61,019 nt of DNA from a virus (IMGVR_UViG_3300020171_000029:1-61019), one strand, 5' to 3'; shown: positions 2 through 60,515, counted from the stretch's first letter. The notes: generated by a model from the sequence alone, not told the origin. Numbers and translations are program-made.

Positions 2-394
2 ATCAAACCCGCCATAATTTGTTCCGTCTCCAAATCTACTTGTTCCTATAACTTGAAGTCGTGCTTCAGGACTTGTTGTCCCAATCCCCACATTTCCGTT
101 AGTTGAATTGACGAAAAAGACAGAGTTGTTTATTTTAAAGTCGTTTGCTCCTAAGTCGACGTTTGACGTTGCTCCGACGTAGGGGATGTAAAGTCCAGAA
201 TTATTCCAAGTTCCTATTAGATTTCCAAAGAAATTATCTGCTGTAACATTATCTCCTGAAAAATTTGATGTAACTATATAATCTAATTTTCCTGTCCAAG
301 GATTATAAACTGTACTTAATTGGAATGCTAATACAGTTCCAACTAACAAAAGAAAAAACATACCTATAAATATTTGTTTAACTATATGCTTCAT
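2..394 (-). CDS. Secreted/fibre-like protein, N-terminal part (runs off window); not in ORF track
   Basis: Manual translation from ATG 394: MKHIVKQIFIGMFFLLLVGTVLA (Sec-like signal) then YNPWTGKLDY...YIPYVGATSNVDLG...NGNVGIGTTSP, a motif typical of beta-rich fibre/adhesin proteins; frame open to window edge. Confidence 0.7.
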   Translation of the reverse strand, partial: MKHIVKQIFIGMFFLLLVGTVLAFQLSTVYNPWTGKLDYIVTSNFSGDNVTADNFFGNLIGTWNNSGLYIPYVGATSNVDLGANDFKINNSVFFVNSTNGNVGIGTTSPEARLQVIGTSRFGDGTNYGGFD

Positions 395-1652
395 ATATTC
401 CACTCCTATTATCCCAAACTTTATCAAAATTTACATTCCCTGAACCAAATAATACTGAAACAGGTAATTGTAAATTTGAACTTGTTCCTGAATATCCCAT
501 CTTCCTTAATTGCCATCCAATAGAACTTGTCACTGTTCCTGGTAATGCCAATCCTAAATAAATTGGTTGTAATGAATCTTGATAATCCATTCTTTGAATT
601 AAATTTGTTGTAAAATCACTTATAAGTCCTGAAACATAAATCTCTGTCTTTGGCATATTAACAATTGAACCACCTAATCTTGTTGATGAAGAAATTATTA
701 CACTTCCAATCCCTTTCATAGCCATAGAACCAGTCATATTGCCGTTTATAAATATTAATCCACTAACTCCGATTAATGGAGCTGATTTAATTACAACAGA
801 ACCAATAACATTAGTTCCACTAATACCAACAGGGTTTTGTATCCAAATGTTACTACCAGTTGTTACACTATCTGTAACTGCTACCAAATCCCTAATATCT
901 AAATTAGTTGAGGCAACAGTAGTTGTAGGCATAGACCATATACTACCTGTATATCCAGTCCAACTTCCTATTGTAGCAGGATTATTTATATCAACTGCAG
1001 GCATATTAACTACACTACCAGCAATCCTATTATAAACAGAAGTGCTTCCTAATAAAGTTACAATACTATCTGATGTTACTGTTAAATCTCTAATATCTAA
1101 ATTTGTAGCAGTAATTGGAGGAAGATAAACGATAGAACCAGCTACCTGATTAGTAACCTTTAAATCATCTAATTTTGCTCCACTAATACCTAATACTGGA
1201 GCTGATTTTATAACAACACTTCCAATATCATTTGTTCCACTAATTCCAATAGGATTCTGAACCCAAACATTACTTCCTGTTGATACAGAAATAGATGGCA
1301 TAGAATAAATACTTCCTGCAGTTTGAACAACATTATAAATAGAAATAGAGCCTCCTTTGATATATGATTCTGAACCAGCTGAAACTGAAACAGTAGGCAT
1401 ACTCGAAATAGAACCAGCAACTATTAAATATGAACCAGCTTCTATTCTTGTTGATTGAACATTTACACCATCATATGCTCCAATCAAAGAGGCAGAACCC
1501 AAACCAGCAGCACCAATTTTAGTAGTAGCCGGGTCTGCAGCAGCTGTTATTGCAGGCATAGAAGTAATACTTCCTGCAACCCACAATCTATGACTATCAT
1601 CTACAATAGCATTATTTCCACTTCCAATTCCATCCATTAACATTTCTGCCAT
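378..1652 (-). CDS. Gly/Ser-rich repetitive putative virion (fibre/decoration) protein
   Basis: 424 aa; repeats AGSIxSMP, TNLDIRDL x2, TGSN.W.QNP.GISGTN.IGSVVIKSAP..G.SG x2; lies in morphogenesis operon. Confidence 0.6.
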   Translation of the reverse strand: MAEMLMDGIGSGNNAIVDDSHRLWVAGSITSMPAITAAADPATTKIGAAGLGSASLIGAYDGVNVQSTRIEAGSYLIVAGSISSMPTVSVSAGSESYIKGGSISIYNVVQTAGSIYSMPSISVSTGSNVWVQNPIGISGTNDIGSVVIKSAPVLGISGAKLDDLKVTNQVAGSIVYLPPITATNLDIRDLTVTSDSIVTLLGSTSVYNRIAGSVVNMPAVDINNPATIGSWTGYTGSIWSMPTTTVASTNLDIRDLVAVTDSVTTGSNIWIQNPVGISGTNVIGSVVIKSAPLIGVSGLIFINGNMTGSMAMKGIGSVIISSSTRLGGSIVNMPKTEIYVSGLISDFTTNLIQRMDYQDSLQPIYLGLALPGTVTSSIGWQLRKMGYSGTSSNLQLPVSVLFGSGNVNFDKVWDNRSGIYEAYS

Positions 1653-1903
1653 TATTGTTTCTCCTCGTTTAAACTATTATTTAATATTTGAAGTTCACCT
1701 AAAATTAACCACAAAAGATAATTACCTACTTCTGGAGCACCACTATCAAAAACAGGTTTTACTAAATCTCTATCTCTTAATTGGTCACCCAACAATTTCA
1801 TATCATTAAAGAATTGCTGAATATTCAAATCTGTTCTTGGATTTTCTTCAACTTCTTCCATTTCTTCAACTTCTTTTATTTGCTCTTTAATTTCTTTTGT
1901 CAT
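1652..1903 (-). CDS. Hypothetical protein
   Basis: 83 aa ORF overlapping both neighbours. Confidence 0.6.
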   Translation of the reverse strand: MTKEIKEQIKEVEEMEEVEENPRTDLNIQQFFNDMKLLGDQLRDRDLVKPVFDSGAPEVGNYLLWLILGELQILNNSLNEEKQ

Positions 1904-2225
1904 TTTTTAAATCAATATAAGTTAATTTATTTCTTTGTCTATGAGTACTTATCCTAACTCCTCTCCTTGTTAATGCTTCTTTTTGTTCTCCTTCAATTCC
2001 AGCTCTTGTTCCCCATAATTCATTTTCCATTCCTTGTCTCATAACCTCTTGTGGTGACTTAGTTCCTTGCCCACTTTCATCTTCCCAATCCCCAACAACA
2101 ACCACATCCTCTTGTTTTAATGCTTCAGTTACTTCAATTTGTTCTCCACAGTTATGAACAAAATCTGTGCAATCAAATCCAACTGTATATCTCTGATTAC
2201 AATTTGGACATAAATGAATACTCAT
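1887..2225 (-). CDS. Hypothetical Zn-ribbon protein
   Basis: CPNC...HNC; ATGA overlap with upstream gene. Confidence 0.65.
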   Translation of the reverse strand: MSIHLCPNCNQRYTVGFDCTDFVHNCGEQIEVTEALKQEDVVVVGDWEDESGQGTKSPQEVMRQGMENELWGTRAGIEGEQKEALTRRGVRISTHRQRNKLTYIDLKNDKRN

Positions 2226-2374
2226 TTTTCGATTTCCTCTAACATTTTATTTTTATTTTCCATTTCTTTCAAATATAATTTATAATAACATTCTCCACAA
2301 ATCCATTTACCACCATAAGCGACAAATGCTTCATTCTTACAATTCTTTACTGCACATTTCGGTCTATTATTCAT
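2222..2374 (-). CDS. Small Zn-finger protein
   Basis: Start at ATGA overlap with portal stop (MNNRPKC); CxxxxC...CxxC. Confidence 0.6.
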   Translation of the reverse strand: MNNRPKCAVKNCKNEAFVAYGGKWICGECYYKLYLKEMENKNKMLEEIEK

Positions 2375-38041: not shown

Positions 38042-38200
38042 ATTTATTAATTTAGGGAATGGTTATTTAGATATAACAAAAATTATTGGTATTTGGAAAC
38101 AAGAATCAATGGATTATCCATATATTGTTTTATATGGTAATGGAAGAATTGGAATAACTCAAAGAGATTTTATTAAATTAAAAAAAGAATTAAAATTAAA

Positions 38201-40562: not shown

Positions 40563-40679
40563 AGAAGTTAAAAGATGTTGTATGTGTAATGATGTTGCAA
40601 TATATATAAATAATGATACAAAAGAATATCTTTGTCAACGATGTGCAGAAATAAATGAAGTAGCAAGGAGAAGTAAATA

Positions 40680-41918
40680 ATGGTATCAGTTAATTTTGTA
40701 ATACCAAGTTGGTCTTATTGGAAGGAACCACTTAGAGCACAGCCATTAACACAAATGTATTTAGCAACAATACTCGAAGAGCAAGGAGTTGATATAAGCT
40801 TTACTGACTTTAGAGATGGACCTAAAAAAGTTAATAAAGCAGACTTATATTTTTATACAATAGCAAGTCCGGATTTAAAAGAGGTTCAAAATATATCAAA
40901 AAAAATAAAAGAAAGTTATCCAGAATCAAAACATATCGCTGGAGGACCACATCCATCTATATTGCCAAATGAAACAAAAGGATTCGATTCTATTTGCATT
41001 GGAAGAGGAGAAGAAGTTGTAAAACAAATTGTAAAAGATTTTCCAAATCTAAAATCTAAATATCAAATAGAACCAAAAGGAGATTATCCTTTTCCAAGAA
41101 GACATTTTTTAAGTAAAGATAAAATAATAAATGATAACTTATTTAAAACCGATAAAATAAGGTCGACAACAGCACAATTCAGTTTTGGTTGTCCATTTGG
41201 TTGTTCATTCTGTGCAAATTATACAAGAGATAAGATACGAAGAAATGCTATTAATAAAATATCAGATGAAATAGATTATTTAAAATCTGAATATGGAATA
41301 GAAGGATTAGCATTACAAGATGAAATATGTTTGCCAAAGAATGCTGATGAATATTTAGATATGCTTATATCGAAAAACATTAAATGGAGAGGACAAGTAA
41401 GGGCAACTGTTACAGAAGATACATTAAGAAAAGCAAAGGAAAGTGGACTTGTTGAATTATCATTTGGTTTAGAATCTTGTGACCAAGATGTTTTAGATTT
41501 TGCAAACAAACATATTAAAATAGAAGATGTAGAACGAACAATTGAATATTGTAAAAAATATAATATAAAGACAAGAATATATTTGCTTAATGGCTTACCT
41601 GGAGAAAAAGAGGACATAGTTGATAAAACAAAAAAATTTATAATTAAAAATAATCCGGATTTAGTTTTATTATCTTCACTTCAACCATATCCTGGAAGCC
41701 CTATATCAACAAATCCAGAAAAATATGGAATTAAGTTTATAAGCAAGGAATATGACAAATTTAATCATTTACTTTGTAGGTTTGAAGATTCAAAAGATAA
41801 TGCTGAAGATGCTGTTCCATATGAGTTTATGAAAGGAAGAGGAATGAGTAGAAAACAGATTATAAATAATATGTTGACATTACAATCTTTTTTAAGAGGG
41901 AGGGATATGAACAAATGA
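40680..41918 (+). CDS. B12-binding radical SAM protein (class B methyltransferase-like)
   Basis: PL..MYLA, AGGPHP, GRGE, CPFGCSFC, FGLES, GLPGE, PYPGS. Confidence 0.92.
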   Translation: MVSVNFVIPSWSYWKEPLRAQPLTQMYLATILEEQGVDISFTDFRDGPKKVNKADLYFYTIASPDLKEVQNISKKIKESYPESKHIAGGPHPSILPNETKGFDSICIGRGEEVVKQIVKDFPNLKSKYQIEPKGDYPFPRRHFLSKDKIINDNLFKTDKIRSTTAQFSFGCPFGCSFCANYTRDKIRRNAINKISDEIDYLKSEYGIEGLALQDEICLPKNADEYLDMLISKNIKWRGQVRATVTEDTLRKAKESGLVELSFGLESCDQDVLDFANKHIKIEDVERTIEYCKKYNIKTRIYLLNGLPGEKEDIVDKTKKFIIKNNPDLVLLSSLQPYPGSPISTNPEKYGIKFISKEYDKFNHLLCRFEDSKDNAEDAVPYEFMKGRGMSRKQIINNMLTLQSFLRGRDMNK

Positions 41919-43427: not shown

Positions 43428-43428
43428 A

Positions 43429-44191: not shown

Positions 44192-44307
44192 TTGTGATGT
44201 TTGTGGAGAAGAAGTAAGTTATTCAGAGCCAGTTTTTAAATTAAGAAATAATGCTGAAATTGTCATATGTAAAAAATGCATTAAAAAAGAATTAAGGAGA
44301 AAAAAGA

Positions 44308-44643
44308 ATGACAAAAATAAAATCTAAAAAAACAGAATTAAGAGAACTTGATGAAATGTGGAAAAAGAAAGTTAAAGATAGAGATGAATGGAAGTGTCAA
44401 GTATGTTTCAAAACAGTTACCGGACATAACTGTCAAGCACACCATATATTACCAAAAGGATTAAAAGGAATGAGATGGGATGTTGATAATGGAATTACCT
44501 TATGCTTACAACATCACAAATTTGGAAATTGGGGAGCACATATGAATGCAATATGGTTTACATTTTGGTTAAAGACAAATAAACCACAACAATTCAAATA
44601 TATTACAAATAAATTAATAAGTTTAGGAAAACAAATAAAATGA
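44308..44643 (+). CDS. HNH/NinG-like nuclease
   Basis: RDEWKCQVC, AHH, RWD..NGITLC..HH. Confidence 0.8.
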   Translation: MTKIKSKKTELRELDEMWKKKVKDRDEWKCQVCFKTVTGHNCQAHHILPKGLKGMRWDVDNGITLCLQHHKFGNWGAHMNAIWFTFWLKTNKPQQFKYITNKLISLGKQIK

Positions 44644-45920
44644 AAATAGCATTGATAAATCCTCCAAGTCCATTTCTTATAAATGAGAGAGTATTTCCAA
44701 ATATCGGTTTAGTTAGAGTAGCAACAATGTTAGATAAAAAATATGATGTTGAATTAATTGATTTTGCTGGAGAAAAAGATTATATAAACAAAATAAGACA
44801 AAGAGCATTTGATTTTAATTATTATGGTTTCAGTTCTACAACACCACAATTTCCAATGGTTTATAATATGATGAAAGCTCTTAAAGATGAAAATCGATTT
44901 GTTAATACAATCATCGGAGGTCCACATGCCAATGCAGTTGGTTCATTAAGAAGAAAAGGAATTGATGATATAAACATAAAAAGTTTAGAAGAATTTGGAA
45001 CAATATTTGAAGGAGAGGGAGAGAACATAAAAAATATACTTGATAAAGGATGGCAGAATGGTGGTGTTATAAAAAATTTAGATGAACTACCAATTCCGAA
45101 TAGAAAGTTTATAGACACTCTATCTTATAAATATACTTTAAATGGATTACCAACAACAAATATTCAAACTCAAAGGGGATGTCCATTTGTTTGTAAATTT
45201 TGTTGTGGAAGAGATATTGAAATGTATAATAAGGTTAGAGTGCATTCACCAGAACGAGTATTAGAAGAAATGGATAGTTTAAATGAACAATTTGGATATA
45301 AATCTTTTATGTGGTATGATGATGAAATAAATGTTAATCCAAAAAGATTAGAACAATTATGTATTGAATTAACCAAAAGAGATTATCAACATAGAGGATT
45401 TGTAAGAAGTGACTTAATTGTTAAACATCCTGAATCTGTTCAATGGATGAGAGAAGCAGGATTTGTCAAATTGTGTACAGGAGTTGAATCTGGTTCAGAT
45501 AAAGTTCTAAAGACAATAAAAAAATTAACAACATATGATATAAACTTAAAAGCAAGACAAATAATCGGTGATAATGGAATACATTACGAATCGTTTATAA
45601 TACTCGGACATCCAGGAGAAACAAAAGAAGATGTAGAGATGTCTGTAAAATGGATTAAAGAAGCAAAGCCAGATGACTTTGATATAAACATTCTTACTCC
45701 ATATCCTGGAAGCAAGATTTATAATGATGCAAAACCATCAACAAAATATAAAGGATATAAATGGGAATATGAAGGACTATACTTTAATAAACCTGATTAC
45801 TCTAAAGATATTATCTTCTATAAAGGAATTGGTGGCAAAAGTGCTGTTAATTCGAGGACAGATGATATGACTGAAGCATACTTACACAATAGAAGAGAGG
45901 AGATTGAAAAGTTAAAATGA
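44640..45920 (+). CDS. B12-binding radical SAM protein (second copy)
   Basis: LINPP, PNIGL, IGGPH, GEGE, RGCPFVCKFC, YDDE, GVES, GHPGET, PYPGS. Confidence 0.92.
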   Translation: MKIALINPPSPFLINERVFPNIGLVRVATMLDKKYDVELIDFAGEKDYINKIRQRAFDFNYYGFSSTTPQFPMVYNMMKALKDENRFVNTIIGGPHANAVGSLRRKGIDDINIKSLEEFGTIFEGEGENIKNILDKGWQNGGVIKNLDELPIPNRKFIDTLSYKYTLNGLPTTNIQTQRGCPFVCKFCCGRDIEMYNKVRVHSPERVLEEMDSLNEQFGYKSFMWYDDEINVNPKRLEQLCIELTKRDYQHRGFVRSDLIVKHPESVQWMREAGFVKLCTGVESGSDKVLKTIKKLTTYDINLKARQIIGDNGIHYESFIILGHPGETKEDVEMSVKWIKEAKPDDFDINILTPYPGSKIYNDAKPSTKYKGYKWEYEGLYFNKPDYSKDIIFYKGIGGKSAVNSRTDDMTEAYLHNRREEIEKLK

Positions 45921-46141
45921 AATCAAAAACTTTAAAAGATATTAAACCATATATGCAAGGAACAATGTTAGCAGAGTTTGACCTTGCTAAAGAAAAATTA
46001 AAACAAATAGCAATTAGTAAAGTTAAGTGGTTAATTAAAAATGAAAAAAATCATGTAAGTGCAAGAGAAGATATTTATGCACAAGGTCAAGTAGACGTAT
46101 TAGCTGAATTATTCAATATTACTATGGAGGATTTAAAATGA
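45917..46141 (+). CDS. Small paralog family A, dispersed copy
   Basis: KTLKDI...LKQIAI...FNITMEDLK. Confidence 0.65.
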   Translation: MKSKTLKDIKPYMQGTMLAEFDLAKEKLKQIAISKVKWLIKNEKNHVSAREDIYAQGQVDVLAELFNITMEDLK

Positions 46142-46974
46142 AAGTAGATATAATGATATGTTCAAAAGACAGACCCACTGAATTAGCATTATTACTTCAA
46201 AGTCTCCGAACACAAACACATCAAGAATTTGATGTTTTTATTTATGACGATAGAAGCGGTGTACCATACCAGAATTATCATTTTATTCAAATGATAATAA
46301 GCAGGATGAAATTAGAAAATCATAATGTTTTAATTTGGAGAAATGACATTCCGTTAGGTGTTACGAGATTAAGAAGAAATATGGTAGAAAAGATTTTAGA
46401 AGTCAGCGATGCAGATGCGATACTAAGACTCGATGATGATAACCTTTTAGAACCAGACTATATTGAAAGACTTGTTAAATGTCTTAATGATGGTTGGGAT
46501 ATTGCATCTGGATTAGTTCCACATTGTGGAGTTCCATTTATAAAAAGAGATACAAAATTTGTTAAGCCATTTATAAGTGATGTGAAATTAAATGATAAAG
46601 GAGAAATAATCTATTTTGGTGATGAATGTGGAATGGAATATATTACAAAAGAAGTTATACCAAGTCCAAATTTTAGAAGTATGGCTCTTATTAAAAGAGA
46701 AGTTCACGAAAAAGTGAAGTATGAAGACAATCTTGGATTTTGTTCATTTAGAGAAGAACAATGGTTTAGTTTTAGAGCATTATTGGAAGGATATAAGATA
46801 TGTGTCGATACAGGAGCAATCGCTTATCATCTTCAAACTCCAAGTGGAGGAGAAAGAACAAATGAATATATGGTAGGATTACAAAGGAATAATGAATTGC
46901 TAAATAAATTTACTCAAAAAATTTATAAAGAAAAAGGTGATTTTTTAGAAGAATATAGGAGTAAGTTTAAATGA
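46138..46974 (+). CDS. GT2 glycosyltransferase
   Basis: SKDRP, SLRTQT, YDD, RLDDD, REE, HL...GG. Confidence 0.9.
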   Translation: MKVDIMICSKDRPTELALLLQSLRTQTHQEFDVFIYDDRSGVPYQNYHFIQMIISRMKLENHNVLIWRNDIPLGVTRLRRNMVEKILEVSDADAILRLDDDNLLEPDYIERLVKCLNDGWDIASGLVPHCGVPFIKRDTKFVKPFISDVKLNDKGEIIYFGDECGMEYITKEVIPSPNFRSMALIKREVHEKVKYEDNLGFCSFREEQWFSFRALLEGYKICVDTGAIAYHLQTPSGGERTNEYMVGLQRNNELLNKFTQKIYKEKGDFLEEYRSKFK

Positions 46975-47177
46975 AATTCAAAATAATTAATTGTCCAAAA
47001 AGAGTAGAAAAATTCATAAGAAATTTTTTAAATGAAACAGATATAGAAGATTTTATTGAAGAATTATCTTTACAATCTTTTAGAGATTATGTAATATATG
47101 GATATAATCCATGGGATTATTTAGAAGAAACAAAATTAAATCTAAAACATCAAAAATTTAAACCTATTTTAAAATGA
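46971..47177 (+). CDS. Hypothetical protein
   Basis: 68 aa, ATGA-coupled. Confidence 0.5.
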   Translation: MKFKIINCPKRVEKFIRNFLNETDIEDFIEELSLQSFRDYVIYGYNPWDYLEETKLNLKHQKFKPILK

Positions 47178-48310
47178 AAAAAATTAATATTGTTGGAAGC
47201 ATATTTGGTTCAGATGGCTACTCATCACACACTCGCCAATTAGCAAATGCTTTATATAAAGTAGCAGATTGTAGAATAACAACACAAGCACCACCAGATT
47301 GGGTTAAACATGTCAATGATGCTGAATTAGATATGCTTACCAAACCAGAAAGAAAAGATGATTATAATCTAATTATTGCGATGCCACATATGTGGAAATT
47401 GTTTACTGGATTAGGAAAAAATATTGGATATGTTATTTGGGAGGGAGACAAAGTACCTCGTTCATGGTGTGAAGAATTTTATAATAATAAAATAGATTAT
47501 ATTTTTGTTCCAAGTGAACATACTAAACAAGCAATATTAAATACAATAATTCCACTTAACGAACACTTAAAAAAATTAATTATAGATAAAATAAAAGTAA
47601 TTCCACATGGTGTAGATAGAAATATATTTCATAGTCTCCAAGATGCTGTTCCGACATTGAAAGATGATATCCACCTGAAATCGGAGCGTAATAGGTTAGG
47701 AGACACTTTCAAATTCATATGCAATAAAGGATGGCGCGGAACATCTTGGGATAGAGGAGGAGTTCAATATCTCATAAAAGCATTTGCAGAAGAATTCAAA
47801 AAAGATGACAAAGTTAAGCTTATAATCAAACTCAATCCAGCATACATAAATCCTGAGATTATAAACCAAGCATTACAACAACTCAATCTTCCAGAGGACA
47901 GAGCACCAATTCATATTAATTGTGATATCCTTCCGTTTGAAAAGTTAAATGATTTATATAACCAAGCAGACTGTTTTGTTTGTCCAACAAGATGTGAGTC
48001 ATTTAACTTACCAGGACTTGAAGCAATGAGTTGTGGTTTGCCAACTATCCAGACTTCTTTTGGAGGACAAACTGATTATATGACTGCTGATAATAGCATG
48101 TTTATAGATTATGAATTACAAGATTCAGAAGAAATACCAATGTATGAAGGAGTGAAATGGGCTATTCCAAAAATGGATTTCTTAAAAAAATCATTAAGAT
48201 GGGCATTTGAAAATCAAGATAAAATAAAAGAAATGGGAAAACAAGCAGAACAAGATAGTAAAAATTTTACTTGGGATAATTCAGCAAAGAAAATCATTGA
48301 GTTATTATAA
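47174..48310 (+). CDS. GT4 glycosyltransferase
   Basis: DGY, WE, VPSE, IPHGVD, ESFNLPGLEAMSCGLP, FTW. Confidence 0.92.
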   Translation: MKKINIVGSIFGSDGYSSHTRQLANALYKVADCRITTQAPPDWVKHVNDAELDMLTKPERKDDYNLIIAMPHMWKLFTGLGKNIGYVIWEGDKVPRSWCEEFYNNKIDYIFVPSEHTKQAILNTIIPLNEHLKKLIIDKIKVIPHGVDRNIFHSLQDAVPTLKDDIHLKSERNRLGDTFKFICNKGWRGTSWDRGGVQYLIKAFAEEFKKDDKVKLIIKLNPAYINPEIINQALQQLNLPEDRAPIHINCDILPFEKLNDLYNQADCFVCPTRCESFNLPGLEAMSCGLPTIQTSFGGQTDYMTADNSMFIDYELQDSEEIPMYEGVKWAIPKMDFLKKSLRWAFENQDKIKEMGKQAEQDSKNFTWDNSAKKIIELL

Positions 48311-49906: not shown

Positions 49907-50485
49907 TTAAATCCAATTTGTTGTATAAGTTATCCTCGCACCATAAATTGATTTAGATGCATCTAAATCATTACTGAAAATCCAATAAGAATAAACTGAA
50001 TTATCAACTGTTCCATTTGTTATTGTTGTATCTTCTACATTAAATTCTCCTGTTGCCATATCTGATGTTGTTCCATCACTTAAAGTTGTTCTCCTTAATA
50101 TCCACGATGTACTTGCACCTCCTGCACTTGCATATACTATCGCTCCTGTTATAATTGCTCCATTTGGTATTCCATTTACTGATGTCATTCCTTTTGAATT
50201 ACCTACACTTGTCGCAAAAGAACCATCTGCTTCTGAATAAAAAACTAAATTTGATGCCGGTGTTGTATAATCTATTGCTTCTTTAAAGGCTAATCCTATA
50301 CAATTCCAATAAGAAGTTTTATTATTAGTAAAAGAACCAGTAATTAAAATATTATTATCAGATTGAGTAATACTATTCAATCTATCCACAAGAGGATTAA
50401 TTCCAGAAGTTCCCAAAGCACTCCCAACTATCGCTCCTGCTGTAAACTGTACTCCAGATGCATATTGACTATAAAGTTCTGCCAT
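49907..50485 (-). CDS. Putative tail tip/receptor-binding protein
   Basis: Beta-rich, IPNGAIITG, YGARITY; end of tail module. Confidence 0.55.
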   Translation of the reverse strand: MAELYSQYASGVQFTAGAIVGSALGTSGINPLVDRLNSITQSDNNILITGSFTNNKTSYWNCIGLAFKEAIDYTTPASNLVFYSEADGSFATSVGNSKGMTSVNGIPNGAIITGAIVYASAGGASTSWILRRTTLSDGTTSDMATGEFNVEDTTITNGTVDNSVYSYWIFSNDLDASKSIYGARITYTTNWI

Positions 50486-50544: not shown

Positions 50545-50898
50545 TTATATTACAAATTTAATTACTTGTTGCACTTGAAGTTCTTGCTCACCATCAAATA
50601 CCAAACTTCCTATTAACACTTCACGATTTAACATTGCACTACCTAAAGTGAAAGTTCCAAATTCTTTTAAGATACATCCACTAATATCATTGGGTGCCCA
50701 ATTCGCTATCATAGTAACTTGTTCTGCTGTTCCTAAATCATTTGTATCAACTTGATTTCTATCAAATTCACTTACTAAAACAGTATTACCAGATATATAT
50801 GCAGTTGAACCGATACCAACTCCAATATAATGATTTGTAGTATAACTTCCTATTAATGCTGCTGCACAAATTGATAATCCATGTGTTGTTATTCCCAT
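50545..50898 (-). CDS. Baseplate/tail fibre N-terminal-like protein
   Basis: IT..G, YIGVG.G, L..E..R, LKEFG.F, REV pattern. Confidence 0.6.
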   Translation of the reverse strand: MGITTHGLSICAAALIGSYTTNHYIGVGIGSTAYISGNTVLVSEFDRNQVDTNDLGTAEQVTMIANWAPNDISGCILKEFGTFTLGSAMLNREVLIGSLVFDGEQELQVQQVIKFVI

Positions 50899-50910: not shown

Positions 50911-52419
50911 TTATCCACTTTTAACTATACTGCCAAGTCTCATATCTCCTAATAAAGCAGTAGGCGAATTTAATTGATTATGTCCAGGAACATGAAAATA
51001 AAATGAAGAACCAATACTTCTACATATAGCTTTATATGAATCTTGTACAGTTACACTTCCAGTAGCTAATTCAATATTTGTTATAGATGTATCAACTTCT
51101 GCTCCCTCAAGATTTCTTAATCTTAATTCAACTTCTTTAATATAGCTTGTAAAATCTTTTATTCTTTTATTTACACTCAATGTCAATACATTATTAGAAA
51201 AATTATTTTGTTTTGTAAATGAATATGAAGCATTTAACATCATATAAGTTTGATTACTTATATCATGAAAAGGAATATTAACAATACAGGTTTCTCCAGG
51301 AGTAACATTAACAACTCCATTAACATCAATATCTCCTTGTATTAATGGGTCTTTATATTTTGCTAATAAAGTATTTGCTCGTAAATTTGCTTCATCTAAT
51401 GATTTTATATTTCTATCAATAACTCTCTTATCTTTTCTTCCATAAGTTGATTGACTTGTTAAATCACCACGAATACTTATAAGTGGAGAACTTCTATCAT
51501 ATTCAACAATTATTACACTACCTGTCCATCCTAAATTATTTCCTCCTGTTGTTCCGGAAACAATAACTACTTGACTTGATTGAAAATTTACAAGCCATTT
51601 TACATCTGTATCTGATGGATTACTTACATATAAGATTCCTCCTGGTTGTAGAGTTGTATTAGTAGCTCCACTCCCTATCATTCTAATATTATAAGGTTTA
51701 TCATCTAATGTATAAACACTTCCTGGAGATATTGAACTAAATTCCTCTCTTGCTCCTGTTAAAACTCTATCACCATAAACATAGATATTATTAAAAATCT
51801 CATTATCTGTATTTGTAAAATCAGCATAAGTTGTATTTGTATTATCAAAAGTTAATCCACTACTTACATTATCTCTTTGCTCAAAATGTAAATCTTTATT
51901 AACATCAATATAAAAGAAAAATCCAGATATTTCTGCAAGTTCTCGTAAGGCATCAAATAAACTAATATTATTAAAAGTTATTCTATCAATAGTTATACCG
52001 GTTGCATCAATATTATTCCATGTAATTCCTCTATTTACTGCATTTTGAATTAGCAATCCTTCTGCAATTTTACTTGCCTCTTCATTTTTAAAAATTCTTG
52101 GACTTATAATAATGTCTTGTAGAATTGCACCATAATCTCTACCTCGTATTGTTAATCTTTCATCTTTTTCACTTCCTCTAAATTTTATATTTTCTACAAT
52201 TCCTGTAAATATTTTAGTTGTAGATGGATTGACATCCTTATCAGAATAAATAACAACTTCATCATTCAAACTAAAATCACTTTTATGTCTTCCTGCATAG
52301 TTTATAAAGTCAATTGTAAAATTACTTGTGCTATCAAAATTGTCCATAGTTTTTTCTACTTTCATAGTTTCTGGAGAATATTCAACTCCTCCAATTTCAA
52401 GTTTTGTATATATCGTCAT
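50911..52419 (-). CDS. Baseplate hub/tail tip protein
   Basis: Directly after TMP; IFTGIV, IRGRD, LAEISGF.FYID..KDLHF, N.I.VYG, S..YG. Confidence 0.75.
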   Translation of the reverse strand: MTIYTKLEIGGVEYSPETMKVEKTMDNFDSTSNFTIDFINYAGRHKSDFSLNDEVVIYSDKDVNPSTTKIFTGIVENIKFRGSEKDERLTIRGRDYGAILQDIIISPRIFKNEEASKIAEGLLIQNAVNRGITWNNIDATGITIDRITFNNISLFDALRELAEISGFFFYIDVNKDLHFEQRDNVSSGLTFDNTNTTYADFTNTDNEIFNNIYVYGDRVLTGAREEFSSISPGSVYTLDDKPYNIRMIGSGATNTTLQPGGILYVSNPSDTDVKWLVNFQSSQVVIVSGTTGGNNLGWTGSVIIVEYDRSSPLISIRGDLTSQSTYGRKDKRVIDRNIKSLDEANLRANTLLAKYKDPLIQGDIDVNGVVNVTPGETCIVNIPFHDISNQTYMMLNASYSFTKQNNFSNNVLTLSVNKRIKDFTSYIKEVELRLRNLEGAEVDTSITNIELATGSVTVQDSYKAICRSIGSSFYFHVPGHNQLNSPTALLGDMRLGSIVKSG

Positions 52420-54443
52420 TATAATCTTATTGTATTATTTAATTCTGATTGTAATTCATGTGCAATATCCTTTGCATTAAATCCATTGAGATTATTTATA
52501 TATATATTCAATCCTCCCATTTTATTCGGTGTTTTTGTAGCAATAAGAGTATCTTGTGGATGAGTTTTAATTATATCTCCATTTGGTCTTATTATAGCAT
52601 CACCTACTCCTATCAAGTCTCCAATATTCTTTAATCCAAAAAGAGATTGTATTCCTCCTCCACCTAACTTTTTTTGTAATTGATAAATCCTTGTGAATAA
52701 TGCTTCTATTCTTTCACCATCGCTTATTGTTCTTTCTGCATATATTTTGGATTCTGTTGTTAAAGCATCTATTGCCAAAGTATTTCTTTCTATGGCTAAT
52801 CTATTTGTATCATATTTATCAATAACTCCTTGTATATCTTTTTTGACACTATCCATAGTTATAGTAGATTGTTCTTCTGATATTTTCCATTGTTGAACAA
52901 TTAAATTTTGTTTTGTTCTCCACATATCATATCTATCTAATTCTTTATCAATAGCATCAATTAATTTATTTATATGTTCTATATCAGATTCATCATCAGC
53001 TAATTTTTTTCTTTTTCTTTCTAACTTTTCTAAGTCATTCATTTCATCTAAATATGTTTTCTTCTTTAATTCATTATTTATCTTGAATTGCTCTATGGTT
53101 TCTATTAATCCCTTTTGTTCAGCAATAAACATATCATTTTTTGCTTGTTCTATATTCTTTATATCTGAAAATTCTACATCTCTTTGTAATCTTAATATAT
53201 CTAATTCATTTTGTAATTGTTTTAGTCTATCTGTTTCTTCAATCTCTCCAGCTTCAAGCATTCTTAATTTTTCTACATTAATATCATGTTCTTTTTCTGC
53301 TATTATTATATTTTTTTCAGATTCTCCCGCAAGTACAGCTTGAATATTAGATAAACTTGATAATAACTCTTGAGTTGTTTTTTTAGACTGTTCTATTTTT
53401 TTATTTATATCTACAATCTTTTCAGAAACCTTTCCATATTTTTCAATTAATTTTTCTTGCAATACTAATTTTTCTTGTTCTAATGATATTTCTTTAGGAA
53501 AAATAGTTGATACTTTTTCCTTTAAATCATTCATATATGCTTCATTTTCTTGACTTAATATTTTTGTATTATCAGTTATTTTTCTTATTTGATTTGCAAT
53601 ATCATTTAATTTAGTTAAAATTTCTGGAGATTTTATATCATCTGCAAATATATCATAAAGAACTATTGCTTTACCTAAACTTTCTATCCAATCATAACTT
53701 TCAATTATTGCTTTTCCCATGGCTGATTTAACATTTTCCCATGTCGCAATTAATCTTTGTAATTTTTCTGTATGAGTTTCTGTTGCATATCTCATAGCTT
53801 CTGTTAATGCTGTTCCTTGTTCAATAACTGCATTTGTAAAAGCTTGTTTTCTTTCAACTTCTGTTAATTGATTAGCAGTTTTTCCTAATTCAAAAGCATA
53901 TCTTTTATATGCATCTTCAGCATTAACAATTATACCAAGATTATCAAGAATTAATTTAGATTGTCTTCCAATACCTATTGTTATATCATTGAATGCTTCT
54001 GTAACTGTTCTACCCATAATTTTACCAAGAGCAGCAGACATTTCCATTAATTGTGGTAATTGATTTTGTTCTATTCCTAACATTAATGCTCTATTGGCAG
54101 CTTGCATTAAATCAAAATCAGAAACCATACCTTTAGACGCTTTTTTCAAATCATTTAATAATATATCTGCAGTATCACCAACAACTATATTAAATGATTG
54201 TGCTGCTCTTTCTGTTTGTAAATATGCTTTAACTGATTGAACACCAAATCCAAAAGCAGCTCCAGTAAGTGCAGCATATCCAATTCCAGTATCTTTAAGA
54301 ATTCCTGTTAATTTTTGAAATCCTGTCTGTTGTTTCTGTAAATCTTTATTTAATTTATTAAAATCTTTAGAATATTGGTCAACTGCTTTTATAATTATAC
54401 TAATTGTTGCCCCACCTACTGCTCCTCCTAATATTCCTACCAT
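52419..54443 (-). CDS. Tail tape measure protein
   Basis: IIIKAVD, DLMQAANRA, GIGRQSKLILDNLGI, long coiled coil, D.IIRPNG...HP.D. Confidence 0.88.
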   Translation of the reverse strand: MVGILGGAVGGATISIIIKAVDQYSKDFNKLNKDLQKQQTGFQKLTGILKDTGIGYAALTGAAFGFGVQSVKAYLQTERAAQSFNIVVGDTADILLNDLKKASKGMVSDFDLMQAANRALMLGIEQNQLPQLMEMSAALGKIMGRTVTEAFNDITIGIGRQSKLILDNLGIIVNAEDAYKRYAFELGKTANQLTEVERKQAFTNAVIEQGTALTEAMRYATETHTEKLQRLIATWENVKSAMGKAIIESYDWIESLGKAIVLYDIFADDIKSPEILTKLNDIANQIRKITDNTKILSQENEAYMNDLKEKVSTIFPKEISLEQEKLVLQEKLIEKYGKVSEKIVDINKKIEQSKKTTQELLSSLSNIQAVLAGESEKNIIIAEKEHDINVEKLRMLEAGEIEETDRLKQLQNELDILRLQRDVEFSDIKNIEQAKNDMFIAEQKGLIETIEQFKINNELKKKTYLDEMNDLEKLERKRKKLADDESDIEHINKLIDAIDKELDRYDMWRTKQNLIVQQWKISEEQSTITMDSVKKDIQGVIDKYDTNRLAIERNTLAIDALTTESKIYAERTISDGERIEALFTRIYQLQKKLGGGGIQSLFGLKNIGDLIGVGDAIIRPNGDIIKTHPQDTLIATKTPNKMGGLNIYINNLNGFNAKDIAHELQSELNNTIRL

Positions 54444-54917: not shown

Positions 54918-55895
54918 TTACCAAGCATTGTATTTAACAATACTATCAAATGCACTTCCTGTAACATGGCTTGGAACAAATGTAAAACTTTGTTCTTGAA
55001 CTCCTTCCATTGGACTTGGTATTGTCATATCTGACATCTTACATCCACTTAACACCAAATATAAACTTCCTGCAACTCCCAAAGCACTTAATTCTGCATT
55101 GAATTCACTTCCCGCAATATAATAACTCTCATAAAATGTTCTTGCATTCCCATCATCCATATTCAATGATGATGTAACTTCATATGCCCTATTCAAAGGT
55201 AACAATCCTGTTGCAACTCTTGAGCCATTTAATACTGCATCTCTTTCAATACTATTATTGATACTAAATGTAACTTCCTTTGCATTTCCAACTAATGTTC
55301 CGTCTGGAATTTCTAATTTAATATTATTAAAAAGATATGGTTTAGTAGTTGTTGCTGCTAATGCTACAATCGCTCCCGAACTCATTGTTGAATCCTGAGC
55401 TATGTAACCAATTTCACAATTAACTATTTCTCCAACTCCTGCTATCAATTGAAAACTATCTATCATAGCACCAATAGTTGTCCTTATAAAATTACTTCCT
55501 GCATATCCAACATTCTTTGAATCTTCAATAGCAAAATGATACAATGGGTTACTTGAAACTTGAACTCTATCATCAGAATTTGTTTCTGAAAATACATGTA
55601 AAATTCCTGTTGCTGTTCCACTAATATCTGTAACACTTCCAATTGCAAATCCTAACATTTTCCAATCTTGTGGAAGATAACTTATTGTTCCATTCCATTC
55701 TTTCATACCATCTGCAAAATCATCAACATTTCTATCTGTTGAACCTTGATATCTCACTTGAATAACATTCATATTTGGTTCTAATGAATGGTCCTGAACA
55801 AGTCCTAACCATTGACGAGCTCCACTTATATTTGCATATGTACCACTTTCATACTGAAAACATGTTCTGTTTTGGTCTCCTATATATCTTGTCAT
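54918..55895 (-). CDS. Major tail tube protein
   Basis: ESGTY, FSINNS, R..E; position after tail terminator; GGAGGTGA SD. Confidence 0.8.
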   Translation of the reverse strand: MTRYIGDQNRTCFQYESGTYANISGARQWLGLVQDHSLEPNMNVIQVRYQGSTDRNVDDFADGMKEWNGTISYLPQDWKMLGFAIGSVTDISGTATGILHVFSETNSDDRVQVSSNPLYHFAIEDSKNVGYAGSNFIRTTIGAMIDSFQLIAGVGEIVNCEIGYIAQDSTMSSGAIVALAATTTKPYLFNNIKLEIPDGTLVGNAKEVTFSINNSIERDAVLNGSRVATGLLPLNRAYEVTSSLNMDDGNARTFYESYYIAGSEFNAELSALGVAGSLYLVLSGCKMSDMTIPSPMEGVQEQSFTFVPSHVTGSAFDSIVKYNAW

Positions 55896-56476: not shown

Positions 56477-56920
56477 TCTAATAGAAATTACCTTACCAGT
56501 AATTTCAGCATTTATAATATCTCTAATTTTCTTTTCAGTCCTAATTCTTGTATTTCCAAAATGTCTCCTCGGTCCTCCTACAATCTTTGAACTATGCTCT
56601 AAAATTATTGCAACATCTTCTGTTGTCTGTCCAGAAGGATAAGATTTTCTTTGTGGTTTTATAATACCACTTGCTTCACCTAATTTTACAAATTCAATAC
56701 TATTAGCAAATGTTCCAGTGTCAACGGATTTATGCTCTGCTCTATTCCCAATCACACTTTCCTTAACTTCTTCTTGAACATATGTTCCTGCTCTAACAAC
56801 TCCCATATCTGCACCTGCTTTAATTTGTTGACCTTTTGCTTGAAGCATTCTTATAACTTCACCAATTCCAAGAATTTCAACCTGAACAACATTTCCTTTT
56901 GTCCCCCTTACTTGAACCAT
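56474..56920 (-). CDS. HK97 gp10-like neck protein
   Basis: I.G..E, VDTG...NSI, A..LE, PR.HF. Confidence 0.75.
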   Translation of the reverse strand: MVQVRGTKGNVVQVEILGIGEVIRMLQAKGQQIKAGADMGVVRAGTYVQEEVKESVIGNRAEHKSVDTGTFANSIEFVKLGEASGIIKPQRKSYPSGQTTEDVAIILEHSSKIVGGPRRHFGNTRIRTEKKIRDIINAEITGKVISIR

Positions 56921-57354
56921 TATACTTCTCCCATTAAACTGCCATTTGTCAATCTTCTTATAAACAATTTTTTTAAAATTGGTGTATCATTAACATCCCA
57001 TTTTGTAACACCTTCACTCAATAAACTATATTCACATCCCGACATATTAGTATAACTTCCCAATCCAATTTTAATTGTTCCAGATGTATTAATTGCTCCA
57101 CGAATATATAATTTAGTATCATTCATAAGAATCTTTCCTTGCTCTAACAATACTGCATCACTACTTCCTCTCGTATTGCTTATAGGCAACACAACACCAG
57201 AAATCCAATAATCTGCTCCACTTTGTGTTAATTGAACATCATCGTCATAATAACTTCCTGCACCAAAACCAACATTATAATATTTTATTCTAAGTTGTTG
57301 TCCGAATTTTAGTGCTTCAAGAACACCATTCTGAAAATCAGAAATAATTGTCAT
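56920..57354 (-). CDS. Head closure protein
   Basis: FGQ..RI, position between adaptor and gp10-like gene. Confidence 0.55.
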   Translation of the reverse strand: MTIISDFQNGVLEALKFGQQLRIKYYNVGFGAGSYYDDDVQLTQSGADYWISGVVLPISNTRGSSDAVLLEQGKILMNDTKLYIRGAINTSGTIKIGLGSYTNMSGCEYSLLSEGVTKWDVNDTPILKKLFIRRLTNGSLMGEV

Positions 57355-58000: not shown

Positions 58001-58189
58001 CTAAAATACTGAACCTATTCTTCCTGTACTATCACATTTGATTGGAATTACCGCTAATCCTGATAATCCACATAATAAACATAATTGAACTGCACCTTGA
58101 TTTATAAATTGTGTTCCACTAAAAAATACACGTCCTGCTAAACCAGTATCTGTCCCTGAAGCATTTACTTTCATTATTGTTGCTACCAT
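58001..58189 (-). CDS. Small putative virion protein
   Basis: 62 aa, SG/GS-rich. Confidence 0.55.
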   Translation of the reverse strand: MVATIMKVNASGTDTGLAGRVFFSGTQFINQGAVQLCLLCGLSGLAVIPIKCDSTGRIGSVF

Positions 58190-58204: not shown

Positions 58205-58471
58205 TTAAACAGTTTGCAATGCATGCCATCCTAATCCACCTGCACCATTAACAATATCTCCAATACAGAAACTTCCAGTGCTTGCTACATAACAAATATC
58301 ACTACCTGTTATACTCATTAATACTCCAGATGGGTCATAATTTACAAATATTAAATTTGGTGTTATACTTCCTGCCAAATGTCCATCTTTTATTCCGTGT
58401 GCCATTCCAGGTTTTAACCCTTGAGAAGTCATTAAACTTCCTGTTCCTATATATTGTTCTGTTGTTGTCAT
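58205..58471 (-). CDS. Small putative virion protein
   Basis: 88 aa, GS-rich; GGAGG SD. Confidence 0.6.
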   Translation of the reverse strand: MTTTEQYIGTGSLMTSQGLKPGMAHGIKDGHLAGSITPNLIFVNYDPSGVLMSITGSDICYVASTGSFCIGDIVNGAGGLGWHALQTV

Positions 58472-58509: not shown

Positions 58510-59043
58510 TTAAATACCTACTGCCATCCAACCAACTACTGTTGCTGAACCACCTACTATAAAACAACTTCCTGTTGCTTTTGTTCCACTTACACAATAA
58601 CTTGATTGGCTTCCTGTACTACTCCATTGAGGTGCTCCATATTCTTGTGCTGTAGCAAAAACCATATAGTTTGCTGATGCAAATGGGGATTTAAATACTA
58701 TTAATCCTGAAATATCATCTCCCATCAACACACTTCCTATCTTTATTTTCTGTCCATAAATTGCTGTAGCATTATCTATTGAAACACTATGAAGAGTTCC
58801 TTCTCCTCCAACTCTTATATTGGTTCCACTAATGTTATTTCCAATTATTGTCGGACCACTTACCCATTGATTTGTATCTACTAAATCACAATGAACTTGG
58901 TCTCCTGATATAGCCCCACCTAAAAAAGTTGTACATTGCATCCATCTCCCATATAATTGGTCTCCACTAATCACCTCAGTATAACTTGCTTGATTGACTT
59001 CTTCAAAACCCATTCCATCAATTGTGCTTACATTACTTGCCAT
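58510..59043 (-). CDS. Putative head fibre/decoration protein
   Basis: ISG repeats; C-terminal I.F..PF....Y.V...WMAVG lectin/gp53-like end. Confidence 0.6.
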   Translation of the reverse strand: MASNVSTIDGMGFEEVNQASYTEVISGDQLYGRWMQCTTFLGGAISGDQVHCDLVDTNQWVSGPTIIGNNISGTNIRVGGEGTLHSVSIDNATAIYGQKIKIGSVLMGDDISGLIVFKSPFASANYMVFATAQEYGAPQWSSTGSQSSYCVSGTKATGSCFIVGGSATVVGWMAVGI

Positions 59044-59164
59044 TTCTTTGTTTTTTTCTCCATTTAATTGTGTTCATTTAAAGTTGAACTTCTTATTTGA
59101 ATTATAAGTCAAACTGCTTTTTTAAGTAAAAATAAAAAAATAAAAAAATAAATTTGTACTGTAC

Positions 59165-60028
59165 TTAATCAGTATGTATTTTAGCGATTGCGTTAGTCCT
59201 CATTTCTCTAATCTTGATTCTTTGAGTAATTGATGCTGCTGACATATCGTAAACAGGCATCTCAAAGTTCTCAATAGTTATAGGTCTCTTCTCAGCGATT
59301 ACATAAGCATGCATTCTATCTGTAACAAAAGCATATTTACTATAAGTTGTAGTTGGTGCTGCATTGGTTGAAAATTTAATTACATTCAATCCGTAGATTA
59401 TTCCTAAAAATCCTCTCTCAAGCATATCCCTATTTCCAACTTTATTAGCTTCAACAAAAGTATCAATATTTCTCAAATCATTCAGAACTTCCATTCCAAC
59501 AAACAAAGTTGTTGCTGTATAATCTGCATCATCAAGATATTGCATAGCCCTTGTAATATTAGCGATAGTAATTGCTGCTCCACCTGTTACTAAATTCGCA
59601 TAACTCATCAAAGCATCCTGTAAGATTAATCTTGTCTCGTTCTCTGCAAATCTCTTACCAGCAATCTTAACATTATGCTGTAATAAATTCCACTTAGCAT
59701 CTTCTAACAACTCACGAGTAATCCTTAATGCTACTCCCCATTTAACTGGTTTAACATTGATAGATGTATATGCTGTCTGGTCAATTATTATCTCTGCTCC
59801 TTCTGCTATCTTCCTAACACTCATTTGATTAGGTGTAACTAAATCAATATCAATGCTACTTCCTGGAATATCTCCTGGTCCAAAATAGATTGCGCATTCA
59901 CTTCTTGGAATTAAATTCTTGTCAACTTCTTCAATTAAAGTATCATGAATCTTTCTTGGTATCAAAAGTTGTCCTTCTACTCCAAGTCCTGTGTTCAATA
60001 ATTCTTGTACTGCTTTATATTCTGTCAT
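59165..60028 (-). CDS. Major capsid protein (HK97 fold)
   Basis: LIP..I...LIE, IAEGAEI, K.G....ITRELLED, G.LG.IYGL.V. Confidence 0.9.
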   Translation of the reverse strand: MTEYKAVQELLNTGLGVEGQLLIPRKIHDTLIEEVDKNLIPRSECAIYFGPGDIPGSSIDIDLVTPNQMSVRKIAEGAEIIIDQTAYTSINVKPVKWGVALRITRELLEDAKWNLLQHNVKIAGKRFAENETRLILQDALMSYANLVTGGAAITIANITRAMQYLDDADYTATTLFVGMEVLNDLRNIDTFVEANKVGNRDMLERGFLGIIYGLNVIKFSTNAAPTTTYSKYAFVTDRMHAYVIAEKRPITIENFEMPVYDMSAASITQRIKIREMRTNAIAKIHTD

Positions 60029-60029
60029 T

Positions 60030-60515
60030 TTAAATATTTAAAGATACAATTGAATAGCTTCCATGTCCGCCTGCTGTTAACATTGTTCCAACTGCAAAAT
60101 CAATAATTCCTGCTGCATCTTTTACTGGCGATGCCAATCCTGATGCGATAGGGAAAATTGTTCCAGCACTACCTGCTGCAAATTTCTGTCCTGCAAAACC
60201 TGAGCCAACTGCAATTCCACTAAGTCCCGGCATGATATATAATCCTCTCATAGCCACTGGTCCATATGTATTTGAACCGATATTTTGCAATGCTAATCCG
60301 ATAACCATTGAACCAATTTGTGTTGCCACAGTAGTTCCTCTGATATCGCTTGCTGCATAAGTATCTGCTCCCGAACCTACAAGTCCTACTTCTCCTGAGC
60401 CATTTACCCAATAACCACCTGAAATATTTTCATATGCTAATACAGTTATAACTCTTGGTGCTCCACCATCTGCTAATTGAACTGCTCCATATGGGTTTCT
60501 TGGTTCTATTGCCAT
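60030..60515 (-). CDS. Capsid cement/decoration protein
   Basis: A.ENISGG, VIGLAL, G...GPVAMRG; directly upstream of MCP. Confidence 0.7.
   Translation of the reverse strand: MAIEPRNPYGAVQLADGGAPRVITVLAYENISGGYWVNGSGEVGLVGSGADTYAASDIRGTTVATQIGSMVIGLALQNIGSNTYGPVAMRGLYIMPGLSGIAVGSGFAGQKFAAGSAGTIFPIASGLASPVKDAAGIIDFAVGTMLTAGGHGSYSIVSLNI

Follow-up and report, generated by a model that had tools for sequence, protein, structure and literature searches.

A lineage-wide excess of Gly-Ser pairs in the virion proteins of an uncultured siphovirus with a large sugar cluster

The virus record IMGVR_UViG_3300020171_000029 (positions 1-61019; this whole stretch of 61,019 nucleotides is referred to here as the window) encodes virion proteins in which glycine and serine stand side by side (Gly-Ser or Ser-Gly, GS or SG) more often than their composition predicts. 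The excess is found in about eight virion families and throughout the lineage, in fibre-like, cement-like head, small head-proximal, tube, hub and small tail proteins and in one neck protein. It is established as specific for the Gly-Ser pair, as conserved among relatives, as a repeat in the fibre-like protein and as absent from an outgroup. A preliminary description of the same DNA had proposed that these pairs are acceptor sites for glycosyltransferases encoded by the virus. We tentatively prefer to read the excess as mainly an inherited structural turn or corner motif. The Gly would lie at a turn or beta-helix corner between short hydrophobic strands, and the Ser next to it, for which we infer a structural role, would have been fixed early in this lineage. 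In the 424-amino-acid (aa) fibre-like protein, GS would be the corner of a periodic unit that was later multiplied by internal duplication. The 15-kb sugar cluster of the virus, with four soluble glycosyltransferases and a modified-deoxysugar pathway, would then be a separate trait.

RESULTS AND DISCUSSION

Gly-Ser pairs are in excess in the virion module

For each of the 100 open reading frames (ORFs) of at least 60 aa in the window, 30 of the virion module and 70 others, the number of GS plus SG was compared with the expectation from 2000 shuffles preserving composition (counts below are given as observed versus expected, and proteins are named by their first coordinate; Table 1). At p<0.01, an excess was found for five of the 30 virion-module ORFs and for none of the 70 others, namely the 424-aa protein, 60030, 56920, the tube protein 54918 and 50545. 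The threshold of p<0.05 adds the hub protein, 58510, 58001 and the ORF at 6448-6861 (2 versus 0.3), giving nine of 30 against four of 70. The pooled virion module holds 122 pairs versus 74.7, or 92 versus 60.8 without the 424-aa protein (Poisson p ~1e-4), and the pooled non-virion proteins hold 69 versus 61.8 (1.12). There is therefore a real bias, but its size is modest (about 1.5-fold when the 424-aa protein is left out), and it is smaller and less general than first stated.

The preliminary count for the 424-aa protein (21 GS and 9 SG) was exact. Ten virion proteins had been named as dense in these pairs; eight of them are enriched at p<=0.05, and two, 49907 and 58205, are not. The pairs are low, as had been said, in the capsid protein (1 versus 1.1), the portal (2 versus 3.4) and the tape measure (0 versus 3.8), and the large terminase shows no excess (4 versus 3.6). 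Lacking both GS and SG entirely, the tape measure contrasts with the products of its neighbouring genes.

The enrichment is left standing when Gly and Ser content is corrected for, both in the shuffles and in a ranking of dipeptides. Of all 400 dipeptides in the virion set, GS takes first place (second place when the 424-aa protein is excluded) and SG comes fifth. Ratios for other pairs are 1.13-1.18 for GT/TG, 0.71-0.89 for GN/NG and 0.77-0.80 for SS/ST/TS, and GA/AG and GD/DG are likewise not enriched. A generic clustering of loop residues was ruled out, as GT, GN, SS and ST pairs are not enriched. SG is flanked by I at -1 and T or A at +1, and GS by A, T or I at -1 and V or Y at +1. The consensus contexts are I-S-G-T and [A/T/I]-G-S-[V/Y], with hydrophobic or beta-branched flanking residues.

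We regard an artefactual origin of the bias as very improbable and as largely refuted, whether it were to come from composition, from a motif at the DNA level or from mutation of Gly-Gly to Gly-Ser in an AT-rich genome. The virion proteins are indeed rich in Gly and Ser, and AGY accounts for a larger codon share in Ser beside Gly (0.60) than in the other virion Ser (0.44). However, the shuffles keep composition, the other loop-type pairs are not enriched (SS, ST and TS being depleted), and the enzymes of the same genome are without excess. A DNA-level motif was ruled out, as the coding hexamers occur almost only in frame (GGAAGT 29, 0 and 3 times in frames 0, 1 and 2) and several synonymous hexamer forms are used. 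Decay of Gly-Gly under AT pressure is a weak candidate: Gly accounts for only 5.7% of the orthologue residues at the Ser positions, and the main Gly codon, GGA, cannot give Ser in one step.

Most of the excess lies in inherited sites

The capsid protein led to 64 related viral loci at 58-83% identity, bar one weak match at 36%. Over 16 virion families, the pooled per-sequence observed/expected ratio in orthologues is 1.88. It is about 2 or more for the cement-like protein (1.84-1.89), 58510, 58001, 58205, 56920, the tube, the hub, 50545 and the protein at 1887-2225, and about 1 for the capsid protein, 57607, Neck1, 55909, 60599 and two small proteins. Masking the 58 sites common to at least 50% of the clade brings the pooled ratio from 1.88 to 1.21 (GT/TG, 1.25 to 0.94), and most of the excess is accounted for by these approximately 58 inherited conserved sites. 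The whole excess falls within inherited sites for the tube (2.14 to 0.84), for 56920 (2.42 to 1.19, with seven sites conserved in at least 50% of 61 sequences), for 58205 (1.82 to 1.05) and for 58001, of whose four sites three are retained in eight to nine of nine orthologues.

In the virion families, Ser beside Gly is conserved at 0.63, versus 0.34 for other Ser (p 2e-7). Across six genomes, the corresponding values are 0.47 versus 0.27 for 16 non-virion families (p 0.007) and 0.56 versus 0.34 for the virion families. Since non-virion enzymes show about the same margin, this conservation gap is generic, and stronger conservation of Ser beside Gly was ruled out as a sign of a virion-specific function. 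It is the density of invariant GS/SG that differs, with 14 per 2,073 virion residues and 6 per 5,024 enzyme residues. In the enzymes, SG is the commonest invariant dipeptide (6 versus 1.0).

The strongest signal comes from a repeat protein

The 424-aa protein contains 48 Gly and 61 Ser, and its GS plus SG number 30 versus 13.8. GS alone accounts for the signal (21 versus 6.9); SG alone (9 versus 6.9) is not significant. GS reaches about 1.6-4.4 times expectation in all 36 proteins among the homologue matches listed, query included, and the family has the fixed context [A/T/I]-G-S-[I/V]-x-[I/V] with a commonest GS spacing of 8 residues. Residues 73-175 are duplicated at 229-319 (alignment score 183 versus a shuffle mean of 45 +/- 7), so the 21 GS of this protein are not independent events.

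In the Atlas, residues 349-424 resemble small viral proteins and the C-termini of collagen-type fibre proteins, and the middle of the protein is weakly like a bactofilin-type beta-helix (template modelling (TM) scores 0.38/0.64). The AlphaFold2 monomer was poor (predicted local distance difference test (pLDDT) 46) and unusable. Against viral contigs, the protein found six loci, most with only the C-terminal domain in common, and in the relative G019 its homologue sits behind the hub genes. We read it as a repeat fibre with GS at the repeat corner, the fold being a candidate suggested by these likenesses.

The tail tube and its outgroup without glycosyltransferases

The tube protein carries nine clade-conserved GS/SG sites. 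Its model (pLDDT 87) has its best Foldseek matches in 8ed0, 8xan, 7qg9 and 9iny at E 1e-11 to 3e-16, among them the tail tube of P74-26 (8ed0, E 3e-16, TM 0.74); the T5 tube protein (9iny, 5ngj) is matched as well. Sequence identity to the P74-26 and T5 tubes is 12-16%. Ser of GS/SG lies in coil in 50% of cases versus 41% overall, so that the 12 sites of the model are not preferentially in coil and the comparison is uninformative.

When 1.84 billion representatives were searched with the tube profile, 1,393 hits were obtained; the 101 of at least 280 aa among the best 150 were examined. Representatives at 30-50% identity to the window keep 7.3-7.8 of the nine sites, with an observed/expected ratio of 2.09. 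At 20-30% identity, 2.8 of nine sites are kept (Gly 5.6, Ser 3.4) and the ratio is still 1.80, and for the 17 weakest representatives it is about 1.5 (summed by hand from the rows). The outgroup tubes stand at about 1.3 (18 versus 14.0, summed). The tube fold has therefore a mild baseline excess, to which the clade adds roughly another 1.4-fold. A search of viral contigs with the tube profile for distant relatives without transferases returned the same clade only, at 36% identity or more.

The outgroup consists of five phages with tube homologues at 24-28% identity: Bacillus phages Jayan and DZ1, Staphylococcus phage MVC_VPHSA1, Rossellomorea phage phiT1 and Geobacillus phage GBK1. PF00534 and PF00535 have no match in any of the five complete records. 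The preliminary description had pointed to glycosyltransferase-less viruses with homologous proteins as a check, and these phages do lack the enrichment: their virion modules have observed/expected ratios of 1.16, 1.04, 0.97, 1.11 and 1.09. Only seven of 90 outgroup ORFs are at p<0.05 and one of 90 at p<0.01, matching chance, although single outgroup proteins can still reach 2.5-3 times expectation (for instance 7 versus 2.4).

Tube sites were compared in four of these phages, leaving out the MVC_VPHSA1 tube, which is annotated as two coding sequences. The Ser-beside-Gly tube sites are a clade feature that the Bacillales homologues lack. Since the outgroup retains Gly at five to six of the nine sites, the conserved tube Gly are structural glycines. 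The outgroup residues at the clade Ser positions include I/N/K/K, A/A/T/D, T/T/-/S, N/N/N/N and S/T/E/T. That Gly is kept and Ser replaced in the outgroup is the strongest point for a clade-specific role of the Ser. However, this contrast is limited, as the outgroup phages belong to a single lineage whose host and base composition differ.

The sugar cluster and its association with the motif

The sugar cluster (32,977-48,310) encodes two GT4 (PF00534/PF13692) and two GT2 (PF00535) glycosyltransferases together with sugar-pathway genes, which also include a short-chain dehydrogenase and a cupin. The presence of a 4,6-dehydratase together with the pyruvate-dehydrogenase-E1-like pieces and the two B12-radical SAM enzymes suggests that the product is a branched or C-methylated deoxysugar. 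No hydrophobic 19-residue window was found in any of the four transferases, and the products of the window include no polytopic membrane protein. Compared with PDB and NCBIfam, the transferases gave generic GT4 and GT2 matches only, below curated cut-offs. An HNH-type endonuclease ORF (44308-44643, +) sits within the cluster, between the dehydrogenase and a radical SAM gene.

Four core genes aside, homologues of the pathway genes are present in some of the relatives only. PF00534 was found in 11 of the 12 long records of relatives, the twelfth being a fragment, and no transferase-less genome inside the clade was found among these 12. For the GT4 47174 family, 319 related stretches were found in viral contigs; among 31 long records, a match to the capsid protein is present in 22, at 49-79% identity in 19 of these. 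For the GT2 46138 family, nine of 12 further records are in the clade and the remaining three are fragments. This GT2 looks like a clade hallmark, seen outside the capsid clade only in record fragments.

Virion blocks inside the clade have ratios of 1.88 (G029), 1.77 (G019) and 1.70 (G027). G038, which has a capsid protein at 39% identity, a different tail and the GT2, reaches 1.48. The complete genome G037 (capsid 28% identity, two GT4 homologues, no GT2) has a ratio of 1.24, or 0.95 by hand sum without its two distal tail proteins, and G042, a distant virus with a GT4 homologue, also has 1.24. Because the motif and the transferase core are both clade-wide, they are inseparable from shared ancestry, and the data neither link nor unlink them beyond it.

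A structural motif or an acceptor code

The structural reading fits these observations better because the sites are fixed, the fibre signal has a repeat origin and the neck has the motif but the capsid protein does not, and because the conservation of Ser beside Gly is generic and the signal is weak in distant transferase-bearing viruses.

A number of observations nevertheless weigh against it. The excess spans several unrelated virion families and is seen neither in the enzymes of the same genome (1.12) nor in the five outgroup virion modules (0.97-1.16), and an excess limited to virion proteins over unrelated families points to a common cause acting on them. Structure alone does not explain why Ser is the particular partner of Gly, as GT/TG, GA/AG, GN/NG and GD/DG are not enriched. 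The same is seen among sites conserved in at least 80% of sequences, of which 26 are GS/SG, 8 GT/TG, 3 GA/AG, 2 GN/NG and 5 GD/DG (GG accounts for 4). Thr takes the place of Ser beside Gly in 4.7% of alignment cells versus 12.2% for other Ser, and tubes of the same fold carry I, N, K, A, T, D or E in place of Ser in the outgroup. In the tube model, the sites are not concentrated at the ends of secondary-structure elements (8 of 12 lie within one residue of an end, versus 208 of 324 positions). The excess also survives masking of the shared sites in 50545 (2.88 in orthologues, 2.24 after masking), 58510 (1.91 and 1.59) and the hub (1.97 and 1.56). Finally, density seems to be maintained through site turnover, as the distant tubes, at 1.80, share only 2.8 of the nine sites.

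An alternative that we consider possible, though doubtful, is that Ser beside Gly is a putative O-glycosylation acceptor code of a phage-encoded cytoplasmic system, which would give a sugar-coated virion. The soluble GT2 46138 and the GT4 enzymes 47174 and 32977 would recognise a short strand-turn-strand element and would transfer an unusual branched or C-methylated deoxysugar onto tube, hub, fibre and decoration proteins before or during assembly. Such a code would account for an excess that is specific for Gly-Ser, survives composition correction, is limited to virion proteins and is kept across the clade, and for its absence from five transferase-less phages that keep the Gly but not the Ser. 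The code would also fit the rarity of Thr in place of Ser and a density that, in some families and in the distant tubes, seems to be kept while sites turn over. The transferase core is conserved (46138 and 47174 in six of six relatives, 32977 in five of six), and transferases without a hydrophobic segment, in a virus that encodes no polytopic membrane protein, fit direct transfer in the cytoplasm. However, the association of motif and transferases is a single evolutionary event, both being clade-wide, and the distant G037 and G042, with their GT4 homologues, reach only 1.24. The capsid protein is without the motif while the neck protein 56920 is among the strongest, most of the excess consists of inherited fixed sites, and enzymes share the stronger conservation of Ser beside Gly. 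With 69 GS/SG in the non-virion proteins, the dipeptide alone occurs too often to serve as a sequon, and the tube-model sites are preferentially neither in coil nor at element ends. The transferases resemble only generic GT4 and GT2 enzymes and may instead act on DNA, on a host glycan or on a small molecule. The acceptor proposal of the preliminary description thus stood up to the composition correction and to the comparison with transferase-less relatives; its link to the viral glycosyltransferases stays circumstantial.

The same Ser-specific, virion-limited pattern would also be expected if an enzyme of phage or host origin acted on the Ser in another way, by a different modification or by covalent chemistry (for example phosphorylation, acylation, methylation or cross-linking), which we regard as improbable. 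The conserved 414-aa protein with a methyltransferase domain and the two B12-radical SAM enzymes of the cluster are candidates for such an activity. However, no kinase or acyltransferase was found among 117 ORFs (Pfam, E<=1e-3), and the radical SAM and methyltransferase genes lie amid sugar-pathway genes, where tailoring of the sugar would be the simpler role.

Comparison with known systems

In the eukaryotic proteoglycan xylosylation sequon, Ser stands directly before Gly and the flanks are acidic. The Ser-Gly pair is shared, but the flanks found here (I, A, T, V and Y) are hydrophobic instead of acidic, which speaks against an acceptor code of this type, and GS is as enriched as SG or more. 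No match to a xylosyltransferase-type family was found among the ORFs scanned with Pfam.

Two other systems are precedents in favour of an acceptor code. According to one report, the transferases encoded by mycobacteriophages add sugar to the capsid and tail tube proteins of these phages (PMC12363180, citing Freeman et al. 2023). As far as that account goes, Che8, Corndog and Myrna resemble the virus of the window in being siphoviruses with their own soluble glycosyltransferases, and the tail tube, modified there, is a proposed acceptor here. The capsid protein, however, is glycosylated in that system and lacks the motif here, sugar on the virion is a proposal here, and the cluster of the window is far larger (15 kb with a deoxysugar pathway).

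In a second report, TibC modifies Ser, not Thr, of the TibA beta-helix in a solenoid site pattern, with Ser-313 in N-S-G-G (PMC4358343). As described there, TibC/AAH acting on TibA/AIDA-I is a cytoplasmic enzyme that modifies Ser on regularly spaced beta-helical loops, and the 424-aa family likewise has a periodic unit, [A/T/I]-G-S-[I/V], with Thr rarely taking the place of Ser beside Gly in the virion families. TibC/AAH is GT9-like, whereas the enzymes of the window are GT4 and GT2 and their acceptors would include non-repeat folds such as the tail tube. The autotransporter heptosyltransferase family (GT9-like) has no match among the 117 ORFs (Pfam, E<=1e-3).

Organization of the window and other features

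The window, which covers a whole IMG/VR virus record (class linear, estimated completeness 64%), represents most of the genome of a ~60-kb uncultured siphovirus; complete records of relatives are 57-63 kb. GC content is 23-33% along the window. The siphovirus morphogenesis module lies on the minus strand at 48.5-61 kb and 0.4-7.3 kb, with large terminase, portal, HK97-type capsid, Neck1, PF18906 tube, tape measure and hub genes recognised by Pfam and PHROG. It is divided between both contig ends (1-427 and 60599-61019), and open frames run off each. Because the end frames do not join in phase, missing sequence is probable, or else the genome is permuted.

When ten virion proteins were compared with Pfam at E<=1, nothing significant was found. 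For the cement-like protein 60030, there was no Pfam match even at that threshold and no PHROG match; its feature likeness of 0.96 to an Atlas cluster named phage cement protein, with PF09956 on 12% of the members, is only a lead. The neck protein 56920 has no family match either (Pfam, including E<=1, and PHROG). The portal (2371-4860, -; 829 aa) carries a fused C-terminal Mu-F-like minor head domain, whereas the two are separate genes in the Bacillales outgroup. Two ORFs located between the sugar cluster and the tail genes have no family match and are possible lysis genes; one (48569-48796, -; 75 aa) has two hydrophobic segments and the other (48885-49364, -; 159 aa) has one at the N-terminus.

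In the middle of the genome are a family B polymerase, a PCNA-like clamp, a D5-type helicase, an ERCC4 nuclease and several DNA methylases. The polymerase is seemingly in pieces within 25500-28313 (+), with an RNase-H/exonuclease-like ORF of 139 aa (25500-25919) and a polymerase ORF of 471 aa (26898-28313), between which lie an 84-aa ORF and a complete N6/N4 DNA methylase gene (26167-26901). DNA-methyltransferase-type matches were found in six ORFs, an unusually heavy load for 61 kb; the families matched are MT-A70, N6_N4_Mtase (twice), EcoRI-methylase-like, Eco57I-like and the N-terminal part of a C-5 methylase. DNA is therefore also a candidate target of viral modification enzymes. Besides the HNH-type ORF in the sugar cluster, two more are scattered in the window (31062-31340, +; 6210-6479, -). 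No tRNA genes were found in the window.

No close isolate was found in the phage collection. The sole match to the capsid protein in 185,579 species genomes was L066, a contig of 3.2 kb (CAZDKD010000045.1) that is 81% identical along residues 98-286 and was placed in the bin of an uncultured Saccharibacteria genome; this match may be a binning accident or a hint of the host and is too weak to name one. IMG/VR lists one clade member as a provirus, namely G048 (36.6 kb, the record of L279), which has the GT2 and a capsid protein at 54% identity.

Table 1. Virion-module, sugar-cluster and DNA-modification features of the window (paired counts are GS plus SG, observed versus expected)
Feature	Coordinates	Strand	Observations
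Truncated ORF at contig end	2..427	-	Weak phrog_9942 tail fiber match, E 1.2e-4, residues 95-129; frame open at window end
424-aa GS-repeat, fibre-like protein	378..1652	-	Strongest signal; GS 21, SG 9
192-aa Gly/Ser-rich protein	49907..50485	-	5 versus 4.8, p 0.54; no excess once corrected
117-aa tail protein	50545..50898	-	6 versus 1.8
Baseplate hub or distal tail protein	50911..52419	-	phrog_177; 12 versus 6.7, p 0.03
Tape measure protein	52419..54443	-	phrog_3779; 0 versus 3.8
Tail tube protein, fused two-domain type	54918..55895	-	PF18906, E 5.7e-13; 12 versus 5.8; 9 clade-conserved GS/SG sites
144-aa neck protein	56920..57354	-	'Head closure' by position only, directly upstream of Neck1 gene; 8 versus 3.0
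62-aa protein	58001..58189	-	4 versus 1.5, p 0.046
88-aa protein	58205..58471	-	5 versus 2.7, p 0.11, not significant in window
177-aa virion-module protein	58510..59043	-	10 versus 5.9, p 0.05
Major capsid protein, HK97-type	59165..60028	-	PF05065 and PHROG major head protein; 1 versus 1.1
161-aa Gly-rich cement/decoration-like protein	60030..60515	-	Directly upstream of capsid gene; 13 versus 5.0
GT4 glycosyltransferase	32977..34215	+	PF00534; homologue in 5/6 sequenced relatives
NAD-dependent sugar epimerase or dehydratase	34526..35392	+	PF01370
414-aa protein, C-terminal SAM methyltransferase domain	35380..36624	+	In 5/6 relatives
Pyruvate-dehydrogenase-E1-like alpha and beta pieces, thiamine-dependent	37358..38749	+	
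Nucleotide-sugar 4,6-dehydratase	39477..40562	+	PF16363, E 1e-64
B12-binding radical SAM enzyme	40680..41918	+	PF04055 and PF02310
GT2 glycosyltransferase, 228 aa	41915..42601	+	PF00535
Second B12-binding radical SAM enzyme	44640..45920	+	
GT2 glycosyltransferase	46138..46974	+	In 6/6 relatives
GT4 glycosyltransferase	47174..48310	+	In 6/6 relatives; weak PDB match to chlorovirus B736L
DNA-methyltransferase-type ORF	14903-16087	-	
DNA-methyltransferase-type ORFs	24201-24923, 25072-25578, 26167-26901, 28310-28897, 28894-29481	+	

Significance

If the motif is only structural, it would be a lineage signature of limited wider interest, and also a warning that a Ser-Gly excess beside a glycosyltransferase cluster is no evidence of glycosylation. 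If instead the Ser carries a sugar, it would provide a simple acceptor rule, readable from sequence, for virion glycosylation beyond the actinobacteriophages. A large and conserved sugar pathway carried by the phage would be linked to this rule, and metagenomes would then allow phages with sugar coats to be predicted. Sugar coats bear on host recognition, stability and immune recognition.

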